The notes: a model not told the origin generated them from the sequence alone. 47,389 nt of DNA from Nitrospirae bacterium RBG_16_64_22 (GCA_001803795.1 MHEK01000082.1:1-47389); one strand, 5' to 3'. Counted from the stretch's first letter, positions 4,401 to 43,618 are shown. Program-made: numbers and translations.

Positions 4401-6533
4401 CATCCAGTCCTCCAGGTCGAGGGGGAGTTTTCGCCGCCAGTTCGGGTACTGGTCCGTTGTTCCGGGAAAGTTCACCTGTTCCGCCTGTCCCAGAACGTCA
4501 TCGGCCTGGACCGCCATGACCATGGACGGACCGCGGGCGACGTATTCGTGCACCGCCCGGGCAAGTTCGGGCGTCATCTCCGGGACAGAGACAGGGTGGA
4601 CCCCCATCCCCGCCGGGAGGAGCCCCTCCCTCTCCAGAGCCATGAGCATGTGCGCCCGGTCCCGCGCCCGCGCCGCGACCTGGGACTCGCGTTTTTCGTC
4701 GGAGGGGAAGAGGCCGAGCCGGGTCCGGACGTCCAGGTCCAGCCCGAGCCAAAACCCGTTCAGGGTGGGAAGATCGTGGGTGCTCACGGCGACGAGGGCC
4801 TGCCTTGTGAAGTCACGCGGCGCGGTGAAGCTGGCGTCCGGGTTCCTCTCGAAATAGAAGAGGCGGTACGAGAGGACTCGCATGGGCGCCAGCGCCTGGC
4901 GGACCTCGTCGGGGACGGTACCGAGGTCTTCCCCGATGACGAGGCAGCGGTTCCGCGTGCTTTCGAGCGCGAGAATCCCGAGAAGGTCCTGCATCGGGTA
5001 ATACACGTAGGCCCCGTCCGCCGGAGTTCCGCCCGGGGGGACCCAGAAGAGGCGCGAGAGCCCCATGACGTGGTCTATCCGCAGCGCGCCGGCGTGCCGC
5101 ATGTTCTCGCGAAGCGTGGCGATGAAGGGGGCGTAGGCGGCCTCGCGCAGCCGGTCCGGAATCGGCGGGGGGAGACCCCAGTCCTGCCCGTTGAGGTTGA
5201 AGTCGTCGGGGGGCGCGCCGATGCCGGCTTGCAAGGCGTACAGGTCCTGGCTCGCCCACGCCTCGGCGCCGCCGCGGTCAACGCTGACCGCGAGGTCCTG
5301 GTAGATTCCGATCCCGAGCCCCATGGAGAGGGCCGTCTCTCCGGCCGCGTGAAGCTGGAGATCGGCCTGCCACTGAAGGTACTCGCGGAACTCCACGCGA
5401 TCGATGTTTTCGGCTTCGAACGCGGCCACGTCGGGCGAGTCCGGAGAGCGGAACGCCTCCGGCCACGCGGGCCAGCCCCAGACGCCGGGGTCTTCCCCGT
5501 GGAAACGCTCCTGGAGCGCCTCGAACAGGGCGAGCCGCCTGAGCGGCGTCCCCCTGTCGGCCTGGAAGGCCCGGAACGACTGGCCGCGCGGCGTTCCGGG
5601 GTCCAGATGGTTTTTCCGGAAATGCCGGTACATGGTTTCGAGCGCCTGTTCCTTGGCCCTGGCGACGGACTTGTAGTCCAGCATCTCGTTCGCGCGGAGC
5701 GCCCTGAGCCGTGCCTGGAACGTGAGAGCGGAGGCGGCTTCCCGCGCGGCCGGGCACTCCGCGAAGTCGGGGATCGCCTCGACGTCCAGGTAGAGAGCGT
5801 TCAGGAAGAGACGGCTCGATGGGGAGTAGGGGCTTGCGTGTTCCGGGTTGTGCGGCAAGAGGGCGTGGAGCGGGTTGACGCCGACGAGGGAACCGCCGAG
5901 ACGAGACGTGAGATCGACGAGGGAAGCGAGATCCGAGAAATCGCCGATTCCCCAGTTTCGCCGCGACCGGACGCCGTAGAGCTGGACCGCCGGGCCCCAG
6001 ACGCGCCCTTCCTCCTCGAGGATCGGGGGGATGTGGCAGGTTTCCGGAGCGACGATGAGCGCCATGGAACCCCTGGCCGGGCCGTCCAGCGAAAAGCGGT
6101 GGTAGCCGGGCGGGAGGGCGAGAGCTAGCGCGAACGCGTATCGGACGCAGGAAAGGCTCCGGACGCGCTTGCCTTCCATGAATTCGAGTTCCGCGGGACG
6201 GAATTCTCCTTCGTGGAGGCGGCCGTCTTCCTGGGTCAGCGTCCATTTGAAGGTGTTTGATGCGAGGACGGCGGGCACGGAGAAAGCGATCCGGACCGGC
6301 GCTTCGCCCTCGCGCACGACCTGTACCGGGGGGAGGACCCGTGTCCACGGCTTGGACGAGCGTTCCTCAAGCGCGGCCTCGATCTCCTTGTCGCTGCCGG
6401 CCGGGACCATCATGGCCGAGAGGAGGGCCAGCCGCGTCTCGACGGAGATTTCGCGGCGATGTCCCCAGATGTCGAAGTAGTCGGGGGCGATCCCGCAGAT
6501 CTCGCATAGCCTGCCGAGAGCCTCGAGATTCAT
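1422..6533 (-). CDS. malQ-treY: Fused 4-alpha-glucanotransferase (MalQ, N-terminal) / malto-oligosyltrehalose synthase (TreY, C-terminal), 1703 aa
   Basis: The N-terminal ~730 aa is GH77-like (CGIAPDYFDIWG..., NPLHALLP, DHVMGLSRLFWVP). A Pro/Ala linker (PAPAPAPSGP) follows. The rest is TreY-like GH13 (YRLQL...GVSHIYASPFLKARPGSRHGYDIIDH, LILDLVPNHMG, GLRIDHPDGL). Confidence 0.9.
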   Translation of the reverse strand: MNLEALGRLCEICGIAPDYFDIWGHRREISVETRLALLSAMMVPAGSDKEIEAALEERSSKPWTRVLPPVQVVREGEAPVRIAFSVPAVLASNTFKWTLTQEDGRLHEGEFRPAELEFMEGKRVRSLSCVRYAFALALALPPGYHRFSLDGPARGSMALIVAPETCHIPPILEEEGRVWGPAVQLYGVRSRRNWGIGDFSDLASLVDLTSRLGGSLVGVNPLHALLPHNPEHASPYSPSSRLFLNALYLDVEAIPDFAECPAAREAASALTFQARLRALRANEMLDYKSVARAKEQALETMYRHFRKNHLDPGTPRGQSFRAFQADRGTPLRRLALFEALQERFHGEDPGVWGWPAWPEAFRSPDSPDVAAFEAENIDRVEFREYLQWQADLQLHAAGETALSMGLGIGIYQDLAVSVDRGGAEAWASQDLYALQAGIGAPPDDFNLNGQDWGLPPPIPDRLREAAYAPFIATLRENMRHAGALRIDHVMGLSRLFWVPPGGTPADGAYVYYPMQDLLGILALESTRNRCLVIGEDLGTVPDEVRQALAPMRVLSYRLFYFERNPDASFTAPRDFTRQALVAVSTHDLPTLNGFWLGLDLDVRTRLGLFPSDEKRESQVAARARDRAHMLMALEREGLLPAGMGVHPVSVPEMTPELARAVHEYVARGPSMVMAVQADDVLGQAEQVNFPGTTDQYPNWRRKLPLDLEDWMEDERVRHLAAALGEQRGHAPRSQPAPAPAPSGPMPIPCTIPRASYRLQLGRRLTFQEARAIVPYLDELGVSHIYASPFLKARPGSRHGYDIIDHNAINPEIGSPEDLDRLVDSLRERKMGLILDLVPNHMGIMGADNAWWLDVLENGPASVHARFFDIDWLPATETLRGKVLVPVLGDSYGAALEGGLLKLVFDKETGAFSIFYHEHLFPIDPREYPRILARRIARLEPRLGADNPLFLEFQSLITAFDHLPNRLETEPRKIAERARDKEVHKRRLVQLVERSPDIAWFIEENAGDFNGTPGVPASFELLHGLLEAQAYRLADWRVAADEINYRRFFDINDLAGLRMEDETVFEETHRKVVALIAEGKVDGLRIDHPDGLSNPLLYFQRLQGRFAPLAPEGTDASRPLYVVVEKILAAHEYLPEHWPVHGPTGYGFANSANGLFVDQAAEAAMDGIYARFIGRKTDFEEILYRAKKLIMKVAMGSELGVLANQLSRIAEADRRTRDFTRTALRSAIMELVACFPVYRTYVADEPSQDDRRHVEWAVSVAKKRSLAADVTIFDFLRDVLLKTGAEGKPELFRRAVSAFVMKFQQYTGPVKAKGLEDTAFYIYNRLVSLNEVGGDPRRFGVSAAAFHHANFERGRRWPHALINTTTHDSKRSEDVRSRVNVLSEIPDEWRTHLRRWSRIGKPKKKAVDGEPAPSRNDEYLLYQTLVGAWPLADLDDAGLVDFRERIEAYMVKAAREAKTHTSWLNPNSGYEEAVQGFIGALIESPDTSAFLSDFIPFQKRVSRIGLYNSLSQTLLRLTSPGVPDTYQGCETWNFSLVDPDNRRAVDFDLLARTLEGLKAGVEAEGEAAAVRKLLARMEDGGIKFYVIWKTLGFRKARPDLFGDGDYVPLDATGERAAHVCAFARRLGNSQAIVIAPRLFASLTQAADPPVGPAVWNDTEIGLPEGSNGTYRNVFTGETVTPDGGRVPLSSALASFPLALLANED

Positions 6534-31105: not shown

Positions 31106-31273
31106 AAGGGCGGATTGAAAATTGTAAATTGGAAATTGTAAAACTTGAGAACACAAACCCGGCCCAGGGGCCGCGAGGCACTCTGTAAATTGCAATTTTT
31201 GTCCTGTCCTCGCCTTTCACTTTGAAATTTCCAATTTCCAGTTTACAATTTACAATTCTTGCCCTGTCCTCGC
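31106..31273 (+). repeat. AT-rich heptamer-array element B1 (GTAAATT/GGAAATT arrays as inverted arms around a GC core)
   Basis: gggcggattgaaaattgtaaattggaaattgtaaaacttgaga...ctctgtaaattgcaatt...cctgtcctcgccttt...gaaatttccaatttccagtttacaatttacaatt. Shares a long core with B2. Confidence 0.85.
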
Positions 31274-32215: not shown

Positions 32216-32432
32216 TTAGAATTGTAAATTGGAAATTGGAAATTGGAAATTTCAAAGGCGAGGACAGGGCGAGAATTGAGAATTGGAAATTGGAAATTGT
32301 AAATCGTAAAACTTGAGAATCCAAACTCGGCCGAGCGGCGCGAGGCGCTCTGTAAATTGCAATTCTTGCCCTGTCCTCGCCTTTCACTTTGAAATTTCCA
32401 ATTTCCAATTTCCAATTTCCAATCCGCCCTTT
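32216..32432 (+). repeat. AT-rich heptamer-array element B2
   Basis: Arrays of gtaaatt/ggaaatt, an inverted copy of the GC box (tcaaaggcgaggacagggcgagaattg), a core near-identical to B1 (aaacttgagaa..ctctgtaaattgcaatt..ccctgtcctcgcctttcac), then inverted arrays (aatttcc x4). Confidence 0.85.
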
Positions 32433-33603: not shown

Positions 33604-33702
33604 CGGTGAATGGGTGAATCGGTGAGTCGGTGAATCGGGGAAACTGCATAATTCCAGCCCTTGGTCCATTCACCCATTCACCGATTAACCGATTCACCAA
33701 TT
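33604..33702. repeat. Inverted pair of GGTGAAT octamer arrays (A3)
   Basis: cggtgaatgggtgaatcggtgagtcggtgaatcgg ... ccattcacccattcaccgattaaccgattcacc, separated by about 28 nt. Confidence 0.85.
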
Positions 33703-35220: not shown

Positions 35221-35388
35221 CGGTGAATGGGTGAAACGGTGAATGGGCGAATGGGTGAATGGACAAGCACTCAGCCGTCAGCGATCAGCGGTCAGCAAGA
35301 ATGGAATACGTCTCTTGAATTGTGCTGAAAGCCGAAAGCTGAATGCTGACTGCTGACAGCTATCGGTGAGCGCGTGAATCGGCGAAGC
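35221..35388. repeat. Composite array element: GGTGAAT units, GGTCAGC units, spacer, inverted GCTGAC units, degenerate GGTGAAT units
   Basis: cggtgaatgggtgaaacggtgaatgggcgaatgggtgaat...tcagccgtcagcgatcagcggtcagc...gctgaaagccgaaagctgaatgctgactgctgacagc...cggtgagcgcgtgaatcggcgaag. Confidence 0.8.
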
Positions 35389-35396
35389 TGGAGCGT

Positions 35397-36959
35397 ATGA
35401 CGACACACCGCGCTGGCGGACAGAACTTCCTCTCTCCTGAGCCGGAGGTCCGCCTGACGAAAGCCTTCCCCAAGGCGTTCCGGAACGCCGTCGCCGCCGC
35501 CCAGACCTGCTACTCGTCGAAGGGGATCGTCGACGACGACGGCGTGGCGCCCAGGTACGCCGACCTCGCGCGCGAGATCTACCGGGCGGGGCACCACACC
35601 GTTTTTCAGCACGCCCATTTCCAGTTCGCGCTGTCGGGAATCTCCCGCCACTTCATCTGGAGCTTCCTCCACGCCCATCCCTTCTACAACTCGGAGCAGG
35701 TGAGCCAACGGTATGTTGAGGTCAAGGCGGGGTCCGCGGTCGTGCCGCCGCTCGCCGGTTCGGCGCTCCAGCGGTACATGGAGACGGTTTCGTACCAGAC
35801 GGAGGCCTATCGGAAGCTCACGGACCTGCTGGTTCCCGTCGTGGACGCGGAGTTCGCGAAGCGGTTTCCGCGCCGGCGGAAGGGATTCGAAAAGGACGTC
35901 CGGAAGAAGGCCATGGAACTCGCGCGGTACGTCCTGCCGGTGGCGACGACGGCCTGCCTCTACCACACTGTCTCCGGCATCACGCTCCTCCGGTACCACC
36001 GGCTTTGCCGCTCGTTCGATGCCCCGCTGGAACAGCGGATCGTCGTGGAGAAGATGGCGGCGGCGGTGCTCGCCGCCGAGCCCGACTATATCCACGTCCT
36101 CCAGGAGCCGCTGGCCCTGGAGGAGACGCCCGAGTACCGGTTCTTTGCCTCCCGGTCCGAATGGGCGGCTCCGGAGACGCGGCGCGCCTTCCTCCGGGAG
36201 TTCGACGAGGCGCTCGACGGATGGACGTCGAAGCTCGTCGATATCAAGCCGGGAAACGAGGCGGTCCTGGCCCGGGCCGTCCGCGAGGTCCTCGGCGTGC
36301 CCCGCGCCGCCCTCTCGAACGAAGAAGCGATCCGGCTGGCCCTCGATCCCGCCGTCAACCGGCTCCATGGAGAGACGCTCAACCTGTCGAGCGTCTCGAA
36401 GCTCTCCCGGACGCTCGTCCATCCCGGCTACACGTTCCGGAAGAAGATCTCCCTCACGGCGGACTCGCAGGACCAGCGCCACCGGATGACGCCGGCCTCC
36501 AGGCCGGTCCTGACGGCCCACCTGACGGCCGAACCCGACGCGGTGACGCCCGATCTGATCCGGACGGACGACCGGACCTCCCGCCTCTATGACGAGACGA
36601 TGGCGGTGACGTGGGAATCGATCGACGCGCTCCGGCGCGAGGGGATCCCCGACGAGTTCGTCCTCTACCTTCTCCCCAACGCGGCGGCTGTCCGGTACAC
36701 GGAGTCGGCCGACCTCATGGGTCTCCGGCACAAGCACGCCATGCGCCTGTGCTACAACGCCCAGGAGGAGATCTGGCGGGCCACGCTGGACGAGGCCCTT
36801 CAGGTCCGCGAGGCGAACCCGCTCATCGGGAAGTACCTCCTTCCACCCTGCGCGCTTCGAGAGATGGCGGGCGCCCATCCGATCTGCCCCGAAGGCGCGC
36901 GCTACTGCGGCGTCAAGGTCTGGAGGCTCGGCCTGCACGAGTACGAAAGGAAGATCTGA
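35397..36959 (+). CDS. ThyX-like (flavin-dependent thymidylate synthase family) protein, tandem-domain form
   Basis: ThyX-type motif remnants: SRHFIWSF...NSEQVSQRY in the first half and DSQDQRHRMT in the second half. At 520 aa it is about twice the canonical ThyX length. Confidence 0.5.
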   Translation: MTTHRAGGQNFLSPEPEVRLTKAFPKAFRNAVAAAQTCYSSKGIVDDDGVAPRYADLAREIYRAGHHTVFQHAHFQFALSGISRHFIWSFLHAHPFYNSEQVSQRYVEVKAGSAVVPPLAGSALQRYMETVSYQTEAYRKLTDLLVPVVDAEFAKRFPRRRKGFEKDVRKKAMELARYVLPVATTACLYHTVSGITLLRYHRLCRSFDAPLEQRIVVEKMAAAVLAAEPDYIHVLQEPLALEETPEYRFFASRSEWAAPETRRAFLREFDEALDGWTSKLVDIKPGNEAVLARAVREVLGVPRAALSNEEAIRLALDPAVNRLHGETLNLSSVSKLSRTLVHPGYTFRKKISLTADSQDQRHRMTPASRPVLTAHLTAEPDAVTPDLIRTDDRTSRLYDETMAVTWESIDALRREGIPDEFVLYLLPNAAAVRYTESADLMGLRHKHAMRLCYNAQEEIWRATLDEALQVREANPLIGKYLLPPCALREMAGAHPICPEGARYCGVKVWRLGLHEYERKI

Positions 36960-37008
36960 TGCCGGGAGGATCGAAACCCGTCAGAGGGCTGAAAAACTTT
37001 TAACCGCG

Positions 37009-37124
37009 AAGTGCGCCGCAATCCCCGCCCCTTGGGGCGGGTCAAGGCGCGCGAATGCAAAATACCTCCAAGCAACTTAGAGGCCGGAGAATCCCCGCCT
37101 TTCAAGGCGGGGTTCTTCAATAGG
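37009..37124 (+). terminator. Conserved two-hairpin 3-prime element (copy 2) with an extra hairpin nested in the first loop
   Basis: AAGTGCGCCG[caatccccgccccttggggcgggtcaag]GCGCGC-GAATGCAAAATA...CTTAGAGGCCGGAGAA-TCCCCGCCTTTCAAGGCGGGG-TTCTTCAA. It lies 50 nt after the thyX-like stop. Confidence 0.55.
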
Positions 37125-37561
37125 ACCCTCCCCTTCAAGGGGAGGGTTAGGGCGGGGATGGGGTTGGGTCCGTGAAAGGCCAGACGAATAAGCTCATTGC
37201 CGGCGGGAAACTCCAACGCACATTGCGAAAGAACATGACGGAGGCGGAGCGCCGGCTTTGGCAATGCCTCAGGAAGGAACAGATGCGGGGCATGAAATTC
37301 CGCCGACAACATCCGTTTGGGGACTTCGTTCTTGATTTTGTTTGTCTTGAGGCGAGGCTTGTTGTGGAAGTCGATGGTGGTCAACATCTTGAGCGGAGGG
37401 AGATCGATCTTGTCCGCTCAAGGTTTCTCGAAACGGCTGGGTTTCGTGTTCTCAGATTTTGGAATCATGAGGTCTTGCGAGATCCGGAGGCGGTTGCAAG
37501 CGCGGTATGGGAGGCGCTGGGAAACCCATCCCCACCCCGCCCCTCCCCTTGAAGGGGAGGG
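37125..37561 (+). mobile_element. DUF559 gene bracketed by ~40-bp inverted repeats (candidate small mobile unit)
   Basis: Left: accctccccttcaaggggagggttagggcggggatggggttgggt. Right: aacccatccccaccccgcccctccccttgaaggggagggt, which is the reverse complement with few mismatches. The ORF fills the space between them and its stop lies inside the right repeat. Confidence 0.5.
37172..37552 (+). CDS. DUF559 endonuclease-domain protein (Vsr/restriction-endonuclease-like fold)
   Basis: LRKNMTEAERRLWQCLR...FRRQHPFGDFVLDFVC...LVVEVDGGQH...D..R...L...GFRVLRFWNHEV matches the typical DUF559 pattern. GTG start. Confidence 0.8.
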   Translation: MKGQTNKLIAGGKLQRTLRKNMTEAERRLWQCLRKEQMRGMKFRRQHPFGDFVLDFVCLEARLVVEVDGGQHLERREIDLVRSRFLETAGFRVLRFWNHEVLRDPEAVASAVWEALGNPSPPRPSP

Positions 37562-37688
37562 TGTTGCAAGAGTCCCTTCTCAAAGAGATGTCCCTTTTGA
37601 CAACGTTGCGGTCGGTACGGGGGGAGGCTCGTCGATACACGACCCTTCGGCGTGTACTTGGGCCTACGTGCCATGCTGGAGGAAAGAC

Positions 37689-38243
37689 ATGACGAAGCGC
37701 GTACTGGTGCCGCTGGCGGCGGGGTTCGAGGAGATAGAGGCCGTATCGGTGATCGACATCCTCCGTCGGGCCGAGATCGAGGTCGTCGTGGCCGGCCTGG
37801 AGGAAGGCCCTCTGGCCGGGCGGACGGGGATCCGTCTCGTTCCGGACGCTCTTCTCGCTGACGTCGCGGACCGGGAGTTCGACATGGTTGTCCTGCCGGG
37901 AGGGCTGGAGGGAACGCGGCGCCTGGCCGCCGATCCGACGGTGAAGAGAGTGCTCGCGAAGATGATGGGCGCGGAGGGAAAGTTCGTCGGCGCGATCTGC
38001 GCCGCTCCCACGATCCTGGCCGAGCACGGCCTCGCCGTAGGGCGGCGCGTGACGAGTCATCCGACCGTCCAGGAAAAGATGAAGGACACCGTTTACGATT
38101 CGTCGCGCGTCGTTCGGGACGACCGCCTGATCACGAGCCGGGGAGCGGGAACGGCCGTCGAGTTCGCGTTCGCCCTGGTGGAAGCCCTCCTGGGGCCGGA
38201 GGCCGTCGCCCGGGTCAACCAGGGCGTGCTGGCGCGACTGTAG
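37689..38243 (+). CDS. DJ-1/PfpI/YajL-family protein
   Basis: Start ATG 37689 with GGAGG 6 nt upstream. VLVPLAAGFEEIEAV, nucleophile elbow GAICAAP, ITSRGAGTAVEFA. Confidence 0.85.
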   Translation: MTKRVLVPLAAGFEEIEAVSVIDILRRAEIEVVVAGLEEGPLAGRTGIRLVPDALLADVADREFDMVVLPGGLEGTRRLAADPTVKRVLAKMMGAEGKFVGAICAAPTILAEHGLAVGRRVTSHPTVQEKMKDTVYDSSRVVRDDRLITSRGAGTAVEFAFALVEALLGPEAVARVNQGVLARL

Positions 38244-38260
38244 TTCGAGTTTTCCCAGTC

Positions 38261-39340
38261 TCAGGGTTTCCCCGTTTCTCCGTTTCCGCCTTTCTCGCCT
38301 TCCGCCTCCTGGCTCCACTCACGCCACAGGGTGAGGGCGATGGACAGGAGGAGGGGGCCGAGGAAGAGGCCCAGCAGGCCGAAGGCCGCGACCCCGCCGA
38401 TGACGCCGAAGAAGACGAGAAGGAACGGAATCCGCGTGACCCGGCTGATGACGAGGGGGCGCAGGAGGTTGTCGATCGTGCTGACGGCCGTGACGCCCCA
38501 GATCAGGAGGCCGATCCCCTGCCACGTGCTCCCCTGGGCGATGAGCAGGGCCGACACGGGAAGCCAGACGAACGGCGCCCCGAACGGGACGAGGGCCAGG
38601 AGGACGGTCGCCGCGCCGAGGAGGGCGGGAGCGGGCACGCCCGCGGCCAAGTAGCCGATTCCGGCGAGGGTCCCCTGGGCGACGGCCGTGAGAAGCAGGC
38701 CGTAGACGACGGCCCGGACCGTCTCCGCCGTTGCGTGGATGAGCGGCCAGCGCGGCTCCCCGATGAAGCGGTTGAAGACGCGGCGTCCCTGCTCGACCAG
38801 ATCGTCCCCCCAGCGGAAGAAGAAGAACGCGACGAAGAGCGCGGCGGCGCCTTCGAGGATGTTCCGGCCGACGTCCCCCACCAGGCCAAGGATCCTCTTG
38901 GAAGAGCCGGCCATTTCTTCCCCGAGCCATGCCTGCCATTCCTGCGGGTCCGACCAGATCCGGTCGAGGATTCCGCTCAACCACTCTCCCAGCCACGGAA
39001 GACCGGCGAGCCACCCGGGGAGAGCGGGCTGGGGGCCGGCCAGCCAGGACTTGAGCCCCGCGTAGAGGAACGTGATTTCGTGCGTGACGGCCCAAGCGAG
39101 GAGGAGGATCGGGGCGATCACGAGGGCGACTAGGAAAAGGGTCATGCCGATTGCCGCCCAGGTCTCGCCCACGCGGTTTCGCAGGCGGACGAAGACGGGC
39201 CACGAGGCGGCCGTCACGATTCCCGCCCACAGGACCGGGACGAGGAACGGGCGGAGGACGAGATAGAGCCCGAGGAGGAGGGCGACGAGCGTCGTCCCCC
39301 AGACGACTTGTCTCACGAGTTCCGATTCGATGCGTCTCAA
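38261..39340 (-). CDS. AI-2E family transporter (PerM/UPF0118)
   Basis: 359 aa, about 8 TM helices, with the typical FGLLGLFLGPLLLSIALTLW C-terminal helix. Confidence 0.85.
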   Translation of the reverse strand: MRRIESELVRQVVWGTTLVALLLGLYLVLRPFLVPVLWAGIVTAASWPVFVRLRNRVGETWAAIGMTLFLVALVIAPILLLAWAVTHEITFLYAGLKSWLAGPQPALPGWLAGLPWLGEWLSGILDRIWSDPQEWQAWLGEEMAGSSKRILGLVGDVGRNILEGAAALFVAFFFFRWGDDLVEQGRRVFNRFIGEPRWPLIHATAETVRAVVYGLLLTAVAQGTLAGIGYLAAGVPAPALLGAATVLLALVPFGAPFVWLPVSALLIAQGSTWQGIGLLIWGVTAVSTIDNLLRPLVISRVTRIPFLLVFFGVIGGVAAFGLLGLFLGPLLLSIALTLWREWSQEAEGEKGGNGETGKP

Positions 39341-39353
39341 CGCGGGATTCCCC

Positions 39354-40076
39354 TTAGCTGTCGGCGAACGCGGCCAGGTCCTTGACGACGGCCTCAGCGG
39401 CGACGTCGAGGAAGCGTTTTCCGTGCTCCGGCCGGGCGAGGGAAGGGTCGGAGAGCATCCGGCCGTCGGGGAAGATCTCGCGGAATCTTTCGGGAGAGAC
39501 GGGCCAGGGGTAGCTGACCGGCTCCACGCGGCACCCCGGGATCTCTCTCACCCGGTCCGGGTGGAGATGGGCGGTGAGCGACACCTCCGACGGCGTCGCG
39601 TGGTGCCCTTCGCGGCCGCCGAACAGGGTCCCGGCGAGTCCGGTGATTTCGGGGAGCAGCCACCAGGACGCGATCTTGAACGAGGCCAGGGGGCAGTCGG
39701 AGAGGATGGACGAAAACGACGCGCCCAGCGTCGGCGTGTTTCCGCCGTGCCCATTCACGACGTAGAACCGGCGAAAGCCGTGACGGTAGAGGGACGAGAC
39801 GATGTCCTTCATCAAGGCGAGAAGGGTCTCGGGCGAGAGCGAGATCGTTCCGGGAAATCCCATGTGGTGGTGCGACATCCCGAACGGGATCGTGGGAGCC
39901 ACGATCGTTCCGGCGCGGGCCCCAGCCTCCCTGGCGATCGCCTCCGCGGCGATGTGGTCCGTTCCCATGAGGCCGTTCGGGCCGTGCTGTTCGGTGCTTC
40001 CGATGGGAACGAGAATCGAGTCTTTCTGCTTGAGATAGCTTTCAACGTCGGCCCACGTCAAGAGCGCGAGAAGCAC
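39354..40076 (-). CDS. Creatininase-family amidohydrolase
   Basis: ILVPIGSTEQHGPNGLMGTDHIAAEAIA, VVNGHGGN. Confidence 0.8.
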   Translation of the reverse strand: MLLALLTWADVESYLKQKDSILVPIGSTEQHGPNGLMGTDHIAAEAIAREAGARAGTIVAPTIPFGMSHHHMGFPGTISLSPETLLALMKDIVSSLYRHGFRRFYVVNGHGGNTPTLGASFSSILSDCPLASFKIASWWLLPEITGLAGTLFGGREGHHATPSEVSLTAHLHPDRVREIPGCRVEPVSYPWPVSPERFREIFPDGRMLSDPSLARPEHGKRFLDVAAEAVVKDLAAFADS

Positions 40077-40123
40077 GGTTCACCCCTCCGAAGCGCGAAA
40101 CGTCCGGAACAAATGAGAAATGA

Positions 40124-40262
40124 AGATTGAAAATTGTAAATTGGAAATTGGAAATCGCAAATCGAGAATCCGGAGCGCAGGTATTTGCGCGGCGCCATGC
40201 CGCTTCGCCTGCTCTTTGAATTTACAATTTGCAATTTACAACTTACAATTTCCAATTCTCTT
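40124..40262 (+). repeat. AT-rich heptamer-array element B3
   Basis: gattgaaaattgtaaattggaaattggaaatcgcaaatcgagaatc - GC core - gaatttacaatttgcaatttacaacttacaatttccaattctc. The left end matches the B1 left end. Confidence 0.8.
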
Positions 40263-40955
40263 GGTTCTCAAACCCTGTGTCAGCCGCTCCGCGACGTCGG
40301 CCGTCAGATCGGCGATGGATGGAATAACGTCGTCCGCGTCCCGGAGCGACTCGGCCGGATAGGTGTGGGCGACGGCCAGGACCGGCATTTCCGCGCGCCG
40401 GGCGGCTTCGATCCCGGCGTGGGAATCTTCAACGACCAGGCATTCCTCCGGCTGGAGGACCGATCCGCCCGTCTCGCGCTCGTTTATCTTGGCAAGCGCC
40501 GTGACGAACCCTTCCGGGTCCGGCTTGCCGGCCGACACGTCCTCGGCCGCGACGACGACGCGAAACAGGTTCCGGATTCCGGCGCGCCCGAGGATGTCGT
40601 CGATCTCGCTCCTGAGCGCTCCCGAGACGACGGCGAGCGCGTACCGCCCCGACATCCGCCAGACGGCCTCGGCGGCGCCCGGATAGAGAACGTTGTGTCC
40701 CGCGACGTGGGCCGTGTAGTAGGCCGACTTGCGGCCGATCAGGTCCGCGAGGTCCCCGTCCGAGAGCCCCCGCCCCGCGGCCAGGCAGGCCGCGCGGAAA
40801 CACCCCCGGTCGTCGTATCCCAGGTACTCGCCGTAGTACTTCTCATGCGTGAGCAGAATCCCTTCCTCGCCCAGGACGCGCTGGAACATGAGGAAGTGCA
40901 CCTCTTCGTCATCGGCGAGGACGCCGTTGAAATCGAAAATGATCGCTCTTGGCAT
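40236..40955 (-). CDS. HAD-IA hydrolase (beta-phosphoglucomutase/phosphatase-like)
   Basis: Start ATG 40955 (MPRAIIFDFNGVLADD, DxD motif I), VVSGA, AGKPDP, VVEDSHAGIEAA. The last ~8 codons and the TAA stop lie inside element B3. Confidence 0.8.
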   Translation of the reverse strand: MPRAIIFDFNGVLADDEEVHFLMFQRVLGEEGILLTHEKYYGEYLGYDDRGCFRAACLAAGRGLSDGDLADLIGRKSAYYTAHVAGHNVLYPGAAEAVWRMSGRYALAVVSGALRSEIDDILGRAGIRNLFRVVVAAEDVSAGKPDPEGFVTALAKINERETGGSVLQPEECLVVEDSHAGIEAARRAEMPVLAVAHTYPAESLRDADDVIPSIADLTADVAERLTQGLRTKRIGNCKL

Positions 40956-41058
40956 GGCGGGGCGTATAATGCCGTCCGCCTTGCGGGCGCCGCAAGGAAT
41001 TTCTGCGGACGGAGCGCCGTCTCCTTCTCCTTCGCGGGCCCCGGTTCCATTTGTTATG

Positions 41059-41153
41059 CCTTCCCCCTCAGGGGGAAGGTCGGGATGGGGGCGGGGTTCG
41101 ACTGGCGGAACAATCCCATCCCCACCCTGGCCCTCCCCTTGAAGGGGATGGGA
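41059..41153. mobile_element. ORF-less miniature of the DUF559-flanking inverted repeats (MITE-like)
   Basis: ccttccccctcagggggaaggtcgggatgggggcggggtt - ~12 nt - aatcccatccccaccctggccctccccttgaaggggatgg. Both arms resemble 37125-37169 and 37522-37561, with no gene between them. Confidence 0.5.
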
Positions 41154-41211
41154 TAAAAAAAGGAGGCCAAGCAGCCGTGGTGAAGAAACTCGATCGCATG
41201 GAAGGGCTGGG

Positions 41212-41850
41212 ATGAAACCGATTGTCGAGACGTTTCCCGTTGGTTTTCTCGAAGTAAATTGCACGATCGTCGGTTGTCCCGAAACGCGCGAGGCCCTCGT
41301 CATCGACCCGGGGGACGAGGCCGAGAAGATTCTGGCGGCCCTTGGAAAGCACAGGCTCCGGGCCGTCGCGGTCGTTCTGACGCATGCCCACTTCGACCAC
41401 CTCGGGGCGGCCCGCGAGATTCAGGAGACGTCGGGCGCCAAGGTCTACATCCACCGGGAGGACCTTCCGCTCCTGGAGAACCTCACGGCGCAGTCGAGGT
41501 CGTTCGGTCTTCCGCCGCCGCCTCCGCCGGAGATCGACGGGTTCCTCGCGGACGGCCGGTCGATTCCGTTCGGGCGTCACGATGCAGTCGTGATCCATAC
41601 GCCGGGTCACTCGCCCGGAAGCGTCTGCTTTGCGGTCCTGGCCCTCGGCAAGGTCCTCTTTTCGGGCGATACGCTCTTTCGCGAGGGGATCGGGCGGACG
41701 GACCTCTGGGGGGGCGACGCCGAGAAGATTCTCCGCTCGATCCGCGAACGCCTCTTCTCCCTGGACGACGAAACGATCGTCGTTCCCGGCCACGGGGAGA
41801 GCACGACGATCGGACACGAAAAGGCGCACAATCCGTTCGTCGGGCAGTGA
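41212..41850 (+). CDS. MBL-fold metallo-hydrolase (glyoxalase II-like)
   Basis: THAHFDHLGA (HxHxDH), HTPGHSPGS, GDTLF, VVPGHG. Confidence 0.85.
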   Translation: MKPIVETFPVGFLEVNCTIVGCPETREALVIDPGDEAEKILAALGKHRLRAVAVVLTHAHFDHLGAAREIQETSGAKVYIHREDLPLLENLTAQSRSFGLPPPPPPEIDGFLADGRSIPFGRHDAVVIHTPGHSPGSVCFAVLALGKVLFSGDTLFREGIGRTDLWGGDAEKILRSIRERLFSLDDETIVVPGHGESTTIGHEKAHNPFVGQ

Positions 41851-41851
41851 G

Positions 41852-41902
41852 CCGGTGAATCGGTGAATGGGTGAGTCGGTGAGTCGGTGAATCGGTGAAT
41901 CG
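41852..41902 (+). repeat. GGTGAAT octamer array A5
   Basis: ccggtgaatcggtgaatgggtgagtcggtgagtcggtgaatcggtgaatcg. Confidence 0.85.
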
Positions 41903-41931: not shown

Positions 41932-42603
41932 ATGTTCCGGCGGCTGAACAGCGAAATACAGGTCTTCCTGGAGCGGGACCCGGCGGCGCGGAGCGTTCTG
42001 GAGGTCGTCACCTGCTATCCCGGCCTCCATGCGATCCTTTTCCACCGCTTCGCCCACTGGCTGTGGGGGCGGGGGCTGAGGCTCCTTGCGCGGATGGTCT
42101 CCCAGACGTCCCGGTTCCTGACGGGGATCGAGATCCATCCCGGCGCCCGCGTCGGCGAGCGGTTCTTCATCGACCACGGATCGGGCGTGGTGATCGGTGA
42201 GACGGCCGAGATCGGCGACGACGTCCTGATCTACCAGGGCGTCACGCTGGGCGGGACGGGGAAGGAGAGGGGCGGGAAGCGCCATCCGACCATCGGCGAC
42301 CGGGTGACCGTCGGCGTCGGCTCGGTCGTCCTGGGACCGATTACGATCGGCCACGACGTGCGCATCGGCGCGGGCTCCGTGGTCGTCAAGCCGGTCCCCG
42401 ACAACTGCACGGTTGTCGGTGTTCCGGGCCGGATCGCCCGGATGGAGGGGAGGAAGCTCACGGACGACGAGCTGCTCGCCCACGGGAACCTTCCCGATCC
42501 CGAGGTCCAGTTGATCCGAGAGATGCAGGATCGCGTCTCGGAACTGGCCGAACGGCTCAGGGTGCTGGAAAAGCGGATGCGGGATGAGTCGGTGAATGGG
42601 TGA
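41932..42603 (+). CDS. cysE: Serine O-acetyltransferase
   Basis: [54 protein letters not shown], and hexapeptide repeats. The tail DESVNG-stop is encoded by array A6. Confidence 0.85.
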
Positions 42604-42694
42604 ATCGGTGAATCGGTGAATCGGAAAGGCACTCCTCCCCTTTGTAAGGCCCCGAAATCACGTTCGGGGCAGAAGAGGATGGGTGGGGTAGAGA
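42588..42694 (+). repeat. Array A6 plus conserved ~70-nt tail
   Basis: gtcggtgaatgggtgaatcggtgaatcggtgaatcgg, then aaaggcactcctcccctttgtaaggccccgaaatcacgttcggggcagaagaggatgggtggggtagag. Confidence 0.85.
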
Positions 42695-42702
42695 ATGGCG
42701 TG

Positions 42703-43536
42703 ATGCGAAACGAAACCGTCGGGAAGCTGAAGACAGCCATGTGTATCCTCCGGGAGACGGGAGGATGCGTCGTCGCTTTCTCGGGCGGCGTCGATTCGGC
42801 CGTTGTCACGGCCGTCGCGCGCGAGGTCCTGGGGGACCGCGTTCTCGCCGTGACGGGGGATTCGGCATCCCTCCCGGCGCGGGAGCGGGGGGACGCGGTC
42901 CGCGTGGCCGCCTTCACGGGTGTCCGCCACCGCTTCATCCGAACGAAGGAACTCTCCGACGGTCGGTACGCCGCGAACCCCCCCGATCGGTGCTTCTACT
43001 GCAAGGACGAGTTGTATTCCCGGCTGTTCGAGATCGCGGGAGACGAGGGACTGCCGGCCGTCGTGGACGGGCAGAACGCGGACGACGCTTCGGACTACCG
43101 GCCGGGCTCCGAGGCCGCGCGCAGGCATGCCGTCCGGTCTCCGCTCAAGGAGGCGGGTCTTTCGAAGGCGGAAGTCCGGGAGATTGCGCGGGACCGCGGG
43201 ATCCCGATCTGGGACAAGCCGGCCTCGCCCTGCCTGGCTTCGCGGTTCCCCTACGGAACGACGATCACGGCTGACGCGCTGGCGCGGGCGGACACGGCGG
43301 AAATATTCGTACGGTCGCTGGGGTTTCGGGATGTGCGGGTGCGGGTCCGGGGCGGCTCCGCGACGGTAGAGGCGGAGCCTGGGAGCGTCGCCCGCCTGTT
43401 GGATCCTGCCTTGGCGGCGCGCGTGGTCGAGGCGCTTCAGGGCATGGGTTTCGCGGACGTCCGGATCGATCCGGAAGGGTTCCGGAGCGGGAAGATGAAT
43501 GAAGGAATGATCAACGGTGAATCGGTGAATGGGTGA
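42703..43536 (+). CDS. PP-loop ATPase of the LarE/TIGR00268 type (ATP-dependent sulfur transferase-like)
   Basis: VVAFSGGVDSAVV (SGGxDS PP-loop), CFYCKDELY, VVDGQNADD, PCLASRFPYG. The start is uncertain (42679 or 42703). The earlier track start lies inside the repeat. Confidence 0.7.
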   Translation: MRNETVGKLKTAMCILRETGGCVVAFSGGVDSAVVTAVAREVLGDRVLAVTGDSASLPARERGDAVRVAAFTGVRHRFIRTKELSDGRYAANPPDRCFYCKDELYSRLFEIAGDEGLPAVVDGQNADDASDYRPGSEAARRHAVRSPLKEAGLSKAEVREIARDRGIPIWDKPASPCLASRFPYGTTITADALARADTAEIFVRSLGFRDVRVRVRGGSATVEAEPGSVARLLDPALAARVVEALQGMGFADVRIDPEGFRSGKMNEGMINGESVNG

Positions 43537-43618
43537 ATGGGTGAATCGGAAAGACACTCCTCCCCTTTGTAAGGCCCCGAAAGCATGCTCGGGGCAGGGA
43601 AGGTTGGGAGGGGTAGAA
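43515..43618 (+). repeat. Array A7 plus conserved ~70-nt tail
   Basis: cggtgaatcggtgaatgggtgaatgggtgaatcgg, then aaagacactcctcccctttgtaaggccccgaaagcatgctcggggcagggaaggttgggaggggtaga. An inverted partner of the tail start (ccttacaaaggagggg) lies at 43658-43673. Confidence 0.85.

Follow-up and report, generated by a model that had tools for sequence, protein, structure and literature searches.

In bacteria of many phyla, a small gene for a predicted DUF559 nuclease lies between inverted copies of the BoxC/triplex-motif (TM) repeat. We met this architecture in a 47,389-nucleotide stretch of Nitrospirae bacterium RBG_16_64_22 (MHEK01000082.1:1-47389; hereafter the window, meaning the whole stretch analysed) and found it conserved across phyla. 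We give an even chance to the reading that gene and repeats make up a widespread module of ~440 bp, in which nuclease and repeat are partners in a RAYT/REPIN-like or homing-like manner. Repeat family and protein family are each known separately; the link between them, general across phyla, appears to be new and undescribed, and a search of literature outside subscription-only sources found nothing connecting DUF559 or ycjD with the BoxC/TM repeat.

In the window, the DUF559 open reading frame (ORF; 37172-37552, plus strand) has a GTG start, encodes 126 aa and is neighboured by thyX on one side and a DJ-1 family gene on the other. A previous reading of the sequence alone had proposed that inverted repeats of ~40 bp frame this gene, which would start 3 nt past the left repeat and end within the right one with a repeat-encoded tail, NPSPPRPSP; the coordinates confirm each point. 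The arms (37125-37165 and 37522-37562) are 41-nt inverted repeats, 88% complementary and 356 nt apart, and the whole unit spans ~440 bp. The left arm, annotated with its junction to the gene as 37125-37171 on the plus strand, is a BoxC/TM-type motif: a hairpin at 37126-37146 (CCCTCCCC-TTCAA-GGGGAGGG) is followed by the loop TTA and the mirror G-tract GGGCGGGGATGGGGTTGGG, which occupies the position expected for the ribosome-binding site of the GTG start, 3 nt past the final G-run. The folded domain of the protein comprises residues 15-116. Beyond it, the right arm (37522-37562, minus strand), an inverted copy of the left with its C-tract at 37524-37540 and hairpin at 37541-37561, holds the TGA stop (37550-37552) within the hairpin loop (ccc tcc cct TGA agg gga ggg), so that residues 118-126 are arm-encoded. 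The repeats supply the gene's ribosome-binding region, last codons and stop codon. A sigma-70 scan found no promoter within or ahead of the left arm, and inspection by eye found no GTAG/CGTC tags of the RAYT type beside the arms. Between thyX and the left arm, at 37020-37041 and 37090-37111, are two related GC hairpins, AATCCCCGCC(CC)..GG(GG)CGGG, that fall outside the arm family; the second is followed by TTCTTC and may terminate thyX transcription.

About 3.5 kb from the DUF559 unit, between divergent HAD-hydrolase and MBL-fold genes, two further arms face each other at 41059-41153 with ~12-17 nt between them and no ORF. The miniature, gene-less, back-to-back copy claimed for this site is real, judged by its arm sequences, the arm profile and the missing ORF. 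The window contains the hairpin core CCCTCCCCTTSAAGGGGAGGG at three places (37126, 37541 and 41131), against 0.01 expected from shuffles, and an nhmmer profile built from the four arms matches those four alone within the 47 kb. The left arm of the doublet (41059-41100, plus strand) reads CCTTCCCCC-TCA-GGGGGAAGG, TC, GGGATGGGGG and more G-runs; it is of another subtype, in which stem and third strand covary, and the pairing of CCTTCCCCC with GGGGGAAGG is kept through compensatory changes relative to CCCTCCCC/GGGGAGGG. The right arm (41111-41153, minus strand) is 90% identical to the gene's right arm, and the unstranded spacer (41101-41110) together with the inner right arm (CTGGCGGAACAATCCCATCCCC) resembles the end of the DUF559 ORF (CTGGGAAACCCATCCCC). 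Each arm hairpin folds as single-stranded DNA in computed folding. As one part of the module reading, and with the same even standing, the doublet would be its non-autonomous form, comparable to a REPIN or a MITE. An Rfam scan of 36800-41400 returned only microRNA-like matches to the doublet hairpin, which we judged meaningless.

The arms belong to the known BoxC/PIT/intrastrand triplex motif family. Such repeats were recognised in E. coli K-12 as early as the 1990s, and the BoxC and PIT elements reportedly go back to work by Bachellier et al. in that decade and by Hoyne and Maher in 2000 and 2002. All four window arms are intergenic, one doublet of unlike subtypes among them, and all four show the same anatomy: pyrimidine stem, loop, purine stem, a loop of 2-3 nt, and a G-rich strand that mirrors the purine stem. 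This mirror rule is quantitative: across 121 DUF559-framing arms, an A of the purine stem faces an A or T of the third strand at 212 of 242 positions (88%), against 44%, and at most 55%, under permutation. The window stems do not match the E. coli TM_ECO consensus (CCCTCNCCC N3-6 GGGNGAGGG N3 GGGNGAGGG); CCCTCCCC/GGGGAGGG and CCTTCCCCC/GGGGGAAGG are of the same class and a different subtype, and arms matching the E. coli type occur at three of our loci (L026, L062 and L067). Only 8 of 48 arm pairs have an identical stem.

Holder et al. (2015), who renamed the E. coli BoxC/PIT element TM_ECO, reported 23 copies in E. coli MG1655 and five inverted doublets, each made of an A and a B subtype, as well as TM motifs in >260 genomes; they demonstrated the intrastrand triplex of the E. 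coli motif in vitro and described TM loci as rearrangement hot spots with raised rates (PMC4666352). BoxC/PIT elements also stall DNA polymerase in vitro (PMC4666352), and a preprint interprets these sequences as a switch between G-quadruplex and hairpin (bioRxiv 10.1101/032615). The idea that the arms are private to the element is thus contradicted, the repeats being BoxC/PIT/triplex-motif repeats already on record (PMC4666352), and the arms themselves are not novel. Window and published repeats share the stem/loop/mirror-strand anatomy, intergenic placement, occurrence singly or as inverted unlike doublets, distribution over many phyla and strain-variable loci; they differ in their stems (GGGGAGGG/GGGGGAAGG here, GGGNGAGGG in the E. 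coli consensus) and in that for the published repeats no associated gene is on record, with mobility functions explicitly reported as absent, whereas those described here frame a nuclease gene. One 34-nt arm variant, CCCTCACCCCAGCCCTCTCCCTGRAGGGAGAGGG, is common in exact form to Chloroflexota, Gamma- and Alphaproteobacteria, Elusimicrobia and Binatia (L140-L166); the same exact 34-mer is found in Pseudomonas, Enterobacter and Rosenbergiella besides Alphaproteobacteria, Elusimicrobia and Binatia. This sharing reflects either horizontal spread or strong structural convergence. In general, arms of such low complexity might converge easily, a point against the module reading.

The window protein is a predicted Vsr-like PD-(D/E)XK nuclease. 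It matches Pfam DUF559 (PF04480) over residues 15-116 with E=4e-40 (136.5 bits, cut-off 20.6), PDB entry 3HRL with E=3e-28 and NCBIfam PRK09767 (YcjD) with E=3e-29, and its only Pfam matches are DUF559 and MTES_1575. Searched with Foldseek, its AlphaFold model (pLDDT 80) has 3HRL as best hit (TM-score 0.85), then the catalytic domain of the homing endonuclease I-Bth0305I (3R3P; probability 1.00, TM-score 0.75), then Vsr (1CW0). D55, E66, D68 and H72, together with the RRQHP and RFWN motifs, are invariant among 36 homologues. A survey of PD-(D/E)XK folds groups the structures 1cw0, 3hrl and 3r3p together (PMC3424549), and although the sequence-only reading knew of no description of DUF559, with its Vsr-like fold, as the nuclease of a mobile element, that fold is on record in one such nuclease, I-Bth0305I (3R3P; PMC3424549). 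The Caulobacter DUF559 protein VsrA triggers an SOS response in vivo when a cognate methylation is missing (PMC12907096), which indicates that members of this family can damage DNA in cells. The DUF559 model (37172-37549) is also matched by several mitoribosomal proteins of Toxoplasma and Tetrahymena, with query-normalised TM-scores of ~0.6; a DUF559-like nuclease fold is apparently embedded in these organellar ribosomal proteins.

Framing of DUF559 genes by the repeat extends far beyond the window. Across ~200 loci from many phyla, a strict detector found both arms at ~40-60% and at least one arm at ~80-90%. In the first set (80 loci plus the window, from Beta-, Gamma-, Alpha- and Deltaproteobacteria, Nitrospirota, Dehalococcoidia, Rokubacteria and Planctomycetota), 48 of 81 loci had both arms and a further 25 a single one, against both arms at 1 of 1600 control placements in the same loci; two independent replicate sets gave both, one and no arm at 21, 21 and 11 of 53 loci, and at 27, 24 and 15 of 66. 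Some 10-20% of related genes have no detectable arms, and at several loci scored as having none the arms are present with one mismatch, which the strict detector rejects. The register is kept as well: the right hairpin begins 12-60 nt past codon 116, mostly 21-27 nt, and 114 of the 120 best homologues (of ~3000; 58-69% identical to the window protein) carry arm-encoded tails in the frames ...PSPSRPSP, followed by the stop, or ...HPHPNPPLEGEG.... Most of these 120 start MKGQTN..., and some homologues have an N-terminal read-through that spells out the left arm (LPLQGEGWDGDG). Convergent hairpins fall into two spacing classes, 25-110 nt for doublets versus 350-475 nt where the gene is present. 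Gene and arms co-diverge: protein identity and arm similarity are correlated (Spearman 0.42; permutation maximum 0.19), and the two arms of one locus are more alike than arms of different loci.

These regularities make it distinctly improbable that BoxC/TM repeats spread by some other route and only land or persist at DUF559 genes, where they serve as ribosome-binding site, stop or hairpin. Such a passive association would suit the observations that most arms are far from any DUF559 gene, that arms cluster in certain intergenic regions, that E. coli strains devoid of ycjD still carry TM copies and that no mobility gene close to a TM site turned up in the work of Holder et al. (PMC4666352). It would leave unexplained a register that is conserved across phyla (hairpin 21-27 nt past codon 116, stop in the loop, start after the G-tract), the joint divergence of protein and arms, and the arm-to-arm units common to different contexts; control placements are almost never framed, and random insertion would not repeat one geometry ~150 times. 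The proposed tie between arms and DUF559 stands as far as the framing is concerned, which is general, but not for most arm copies of a genome, which are away from the DUF559 gene. That is what a MITE- or REPIN-like family predicts, and the element reading is not refuted by it.

Evidence that gene and arms behave as one unit comes from paralogues. Two copies in a Desulfosarcina metagenome-assembled genome (MAG) are 90% identical over 447 nt and two in a Nitrosomonadales MAG 87% over 391 nt, and in both pairs, which come from MAG bins whose strains may differ, homology is confined arm to arm, between unrelated flanks. What copies in different contexts have in common is the unit itself. Where a genome has both forms (L019, L025 and L026), the doublet spacer lines up collinearly with the two inner junctions of the gene-bearing copy. 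Together with the bimodal spacing, the arm-to-arm homology and these collinear junctions bear out the suggestion that gene and arms form a unit with the ORF-less copy as its gene-less counterpart.

Close relatives differ in the doublets and solo arms they have. In three of them, whose flanking genes are 86-91% identical, the orthologous HAD-MBL interval contains no counterpart of the window's doublet, and one relative (L084, ~91% identical) has no gene-bearing unit between thyX and DJ-1 and carries two solo arms that have no counterpart in the window. Presence/absence between relatives, which the sequence-only reading had named as a check, is thus seen for the doublet in three genomes and for the unit in one, but not as a clean empty site for the gene copy, L084 having another ORF there. 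That ORF (4596-5207; JGI Ga0494959_0009829) encodes a Cys-rich protein of 203 aa with no Pfam match on record, and a tblastn search of the window found no trace of it (best E=0.22). The relatives' contigs encode no DUF559 protein. The best database homologues of the window protein, mostly from Betaproteobacteria, are only 67-69% identical to it, whereas relatives of the adjacent ThyX and MBL proteins are 86-94% identical; these values, with the lack of DUF559 in the relatives, point to a recent acquisition of the window's unit. As to a vehicle, the DUF559 unit is found on two viral contigs and on 46 of 72,556 plasmids, mostly chromids, and given this rarity phages and plasmids offer no evident route.

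Target-site duplications, also named as a check by the sequence-only reading, are not detectable above chance: flanking direct repeats follow the control distribution, and there are none at the boundaries of loci L087 and L121. An insertion sequence with its MITE would have inverted termini like these, 41 nt long and 88% complementary, but it would also have a target-site duplication and a transposase, and the only ORF here is DUF559, not a recognised transposase. Of the pairing of an autonomous element with a MITE-like derivative, the inverted repeats and the gene-less form hold, but the target-site duplication and a recognised transposase are missing.

The two most familiar members of the protein family carry remnants of the same arrangement. 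E. coli ycjD ends in ...NRRSPSP followed by a TGA that lies within a degenerate hairpin, and an intact TM copy (TM_ECO #9) stands 170 nt downstream of the gene (L081, NC_000913.3 1351150-1351480). Ahead of this copy is an 85-nt degenerate duplicate of the ycjD 3' end with its arm-like hairpin (alignment score 82, shuffle maximum 39). Neisseria gonorrhoeae NGO0050 (PDB 3HRL) retains a single arm, a degenerate left one, ~55 nt ahead of its ATG. YcjD and NGO0050 form one family with the window protein and keep arm remnants at both genes, but in both the framing has decayed, whereas the window copy is intact.

Across complete E. coli genomes, ycjD is present in 3378 of 5426; the others (~2000, ~38%) carry the 8-kb eefRABCD efflux operon at the sapF-fabI site. 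According to a published survey, eef was lost at least twice, ycjD taking its place (PMC12817139). At the sites of both the ycjD unit and the window unit, relatives have other genes instead. Some TM copies are kept in ycjD-less genomes: in 30 E. coli genomes, TM-like matches numbered 10-21 (one genome 5) with ycjD and 1-10 without it, a difference confounded with phylogroup that we do not count as evidence. A blastn search with an Erwinia locus as query found no E. coli match.

Where copies can be counted, arms far outnumber genes. E. coli K-12 has one ycjD and 23 arms (arm count from PMC4666352). A pattern scan of the complete Dehalococcoidia chromosome OZ244908.1 detected one DUF559 gene. 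One 34-nt arm variant is present there in at least 23 exact copies, part of them arranged in tandem, and 11 arm-bearing 8-kb stretches of the chromosome contain that one DUF559 gene only. A few MAGs hold two or three DUF559 copies, some of them at contig ends. In another Dehalococcoidia sequence (L041, CBDCUJ010000001.1), a tandem array of ~9 units with a period of ~92 nt lies at 5115-5926, 2 kb from the DUF559 gene, and alternates arm-type hairpins CCTTCCCCCC... and CCCCTCCCCC...; arrays of this sort, with periods of 85-157 nt, are also present at L062, L074, L080, L144, L153 and L157.

This imbalance weighs on the idea of a strict free-standing homing endonuclease, which would cut the centre of an empty doublet and be copied in by repair from a filled one, making doublets its targets and not derivatives. 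With one detected gene beside many doublets, as in OZ244908.1 and E. coli, homing should have filled the doublets. Nowhere did the same orthologous site turn up as a doublet in one genome and with the gene in another, and the arms would offer only ~45 bp of homology for repair. We regard strict homing as quite unlikely, even though the collinearity of doublet spacers with gene-copy junctions, a fold like that of I-Bth0305I, the lack of target-site duplications that homing predicts and the MAGs with two or three copies, some at contig ends, are all in its favour. Like I-Bth0305I and other free-standing homing genes, the DUF559 gene encodes a Vsr-like catalytic fold, leaves no target-site duplication and has the look of a selfish nuclease gene within a sequence that also exists without it. 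Unlike I-Bth0305I, it has neither an intron or intein context nor an extra DNA-binding domain, its active-site residues are spaced E66-x-D68-x3-H72, and its gene-less sites are a multicopy repeat family instead of one host gene.

An unlikely, though not negligible, alternative makes the DUF559 protein a host repair or maintenance nuclease, either a solitary Vsr-type enzyme that removes T.G mismatches or a structure-specific endonuclease that resolves triplex, G-quadruplex or hairpin, with the arms regulatory or hitch-hiking. Vsr itself is a repair nickase with the same fold, Caulobacter VsrA is SOS-induced and functionally linked to a cytosine methyltransferase (PMC12907096), the gene is usually single-copy with strongly constrained catalytic residues, and BoxC/PIT elements block DNA polymerase in vitro (PMC4666352). 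The window gene, however, differs from very-short-patch repair in that its Pfam matches do not include the Vsr profile (PF03852) and no methyltransferase gene adjoins it, its neighbours being thyX and DJ-1. Nor does its distribution resemble that of a core repair gene: close relatives and ~38% of E. coli genomes lack it, its closest homologues are in other phyla, and the copied unit is delimited by the arms.

Among known mobile systems, one that the module reading resembles in outline is RAYT/REPIN, in which a small gene likewise lies between inverted hairpin repeats, the repeat is also scattered as singlets and inverted doublets, there is no target-site duplication, and repeats far outnumber genes, as they do in E. 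coli K-12 and apparently in OZ244908.1. The present system differs in having a hydrolytic PD-(D/E)XK, Vsr-like nuclease in place of an HUH/Y1 (IS200-like) transposase and in arms that carry a triplex/G-quadruplex tract and no GTAG/CGTC tag; its gene looks horizontally mobile, with the closest homologues in other phyla and none detected in close relatives, whereas RAYTs are mainly vertical. It fits none of the three models fully: the HUH/Y1 transposase of RAYT/REPIN and the transposase with target-site duplication of an IS/MITE pair are missing, and for homing no site turned up both filled and empty.

If nuclease and repeat are partners, how might they act on each other? PD-(D/E)XK enzymes cut DNA by hydrolysis without joining strands. 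Mobility, if any, must therefore be the work of the host, and a hydrolytic nuclease of this kind cannot by itself be called a transposase. We infer that the nuclease would recognise the folded arm, as hairpin, triplex or G-quadruplex, and nick or cut there; host repair, recombination or replication might then copy, move or delete the arms and neighbouring DNA. From one arm to the other, a doublet of unlike subtypes seems to vary mainly by transitions within the short loop (in E. coli, TTA versus CCG, CTG or TCG), so that a folded doublet would contain T.G and A.C mismatches; short-loop differences between doublet arms comprise 14 transitions and 4 transversions, from few cases that include non-independent E. 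coli doublets. Such mismatches are the substrate class of Vsr-type enzymes, and those of the folded unlike-arm doublet may be the feature recognised. A left/right asymmetry in the loop from purine stem to third strand (20 versus 11) was not significant. A nuclease acting together with host repair or replication fits the lack of target-site duplications, the replacement of adjoining DNA seen at two loci and the instability that has been published for TM loci.

With somewhat less than even confidence, we further propose that nucleases of the DUF559/YcjD type are the missing partner enzymes of BoxC/PIT/TM repeats and that the two make up a second, independent RAYT/REPIN-like replicator, whose nicking would drive both spread and rearrangements. 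BoxC/TM has been an orphan repeat family for 30 years and now has its first candidate partner enzyme; DUF559 (YcjD, the Neisseria structure) is a large family without an assigned role, and the link gives each a testable function. E. coli K-12, which has YcjD and 23 defined repeat copies, lends itself to a direct test. Action of the nuclease on folded repeats, if borne out, would establish a repeat-enzyme partnership of a new kind and give a mechanistic handle on structure-driven genome instability.

The window holds two other repeat families. AT-rich heptamer arrays (AATTGGA, AATTTAC or ATTGTAA, 3-5 copies) are found in this genome of 64% G+C in the intergenic regions 31114-31257, 32220-32423 and 40121-40257, at each of the three sites as an inverted pair flanking a GC-rich spacer of ~60-100 nt; the pair at 40115-40260 is 83% complementary over 41 nt. 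Tandem octamers of CGGTGAAT (3-6 copies) lie at gene ends, once as an inverted pair, at 1372-1408, 33604-33702, 35222-35262, 41853-41902, 42585-42624 and 43515-43549, and arrays of the same octamer occur in the relative L084 (1218-1320).
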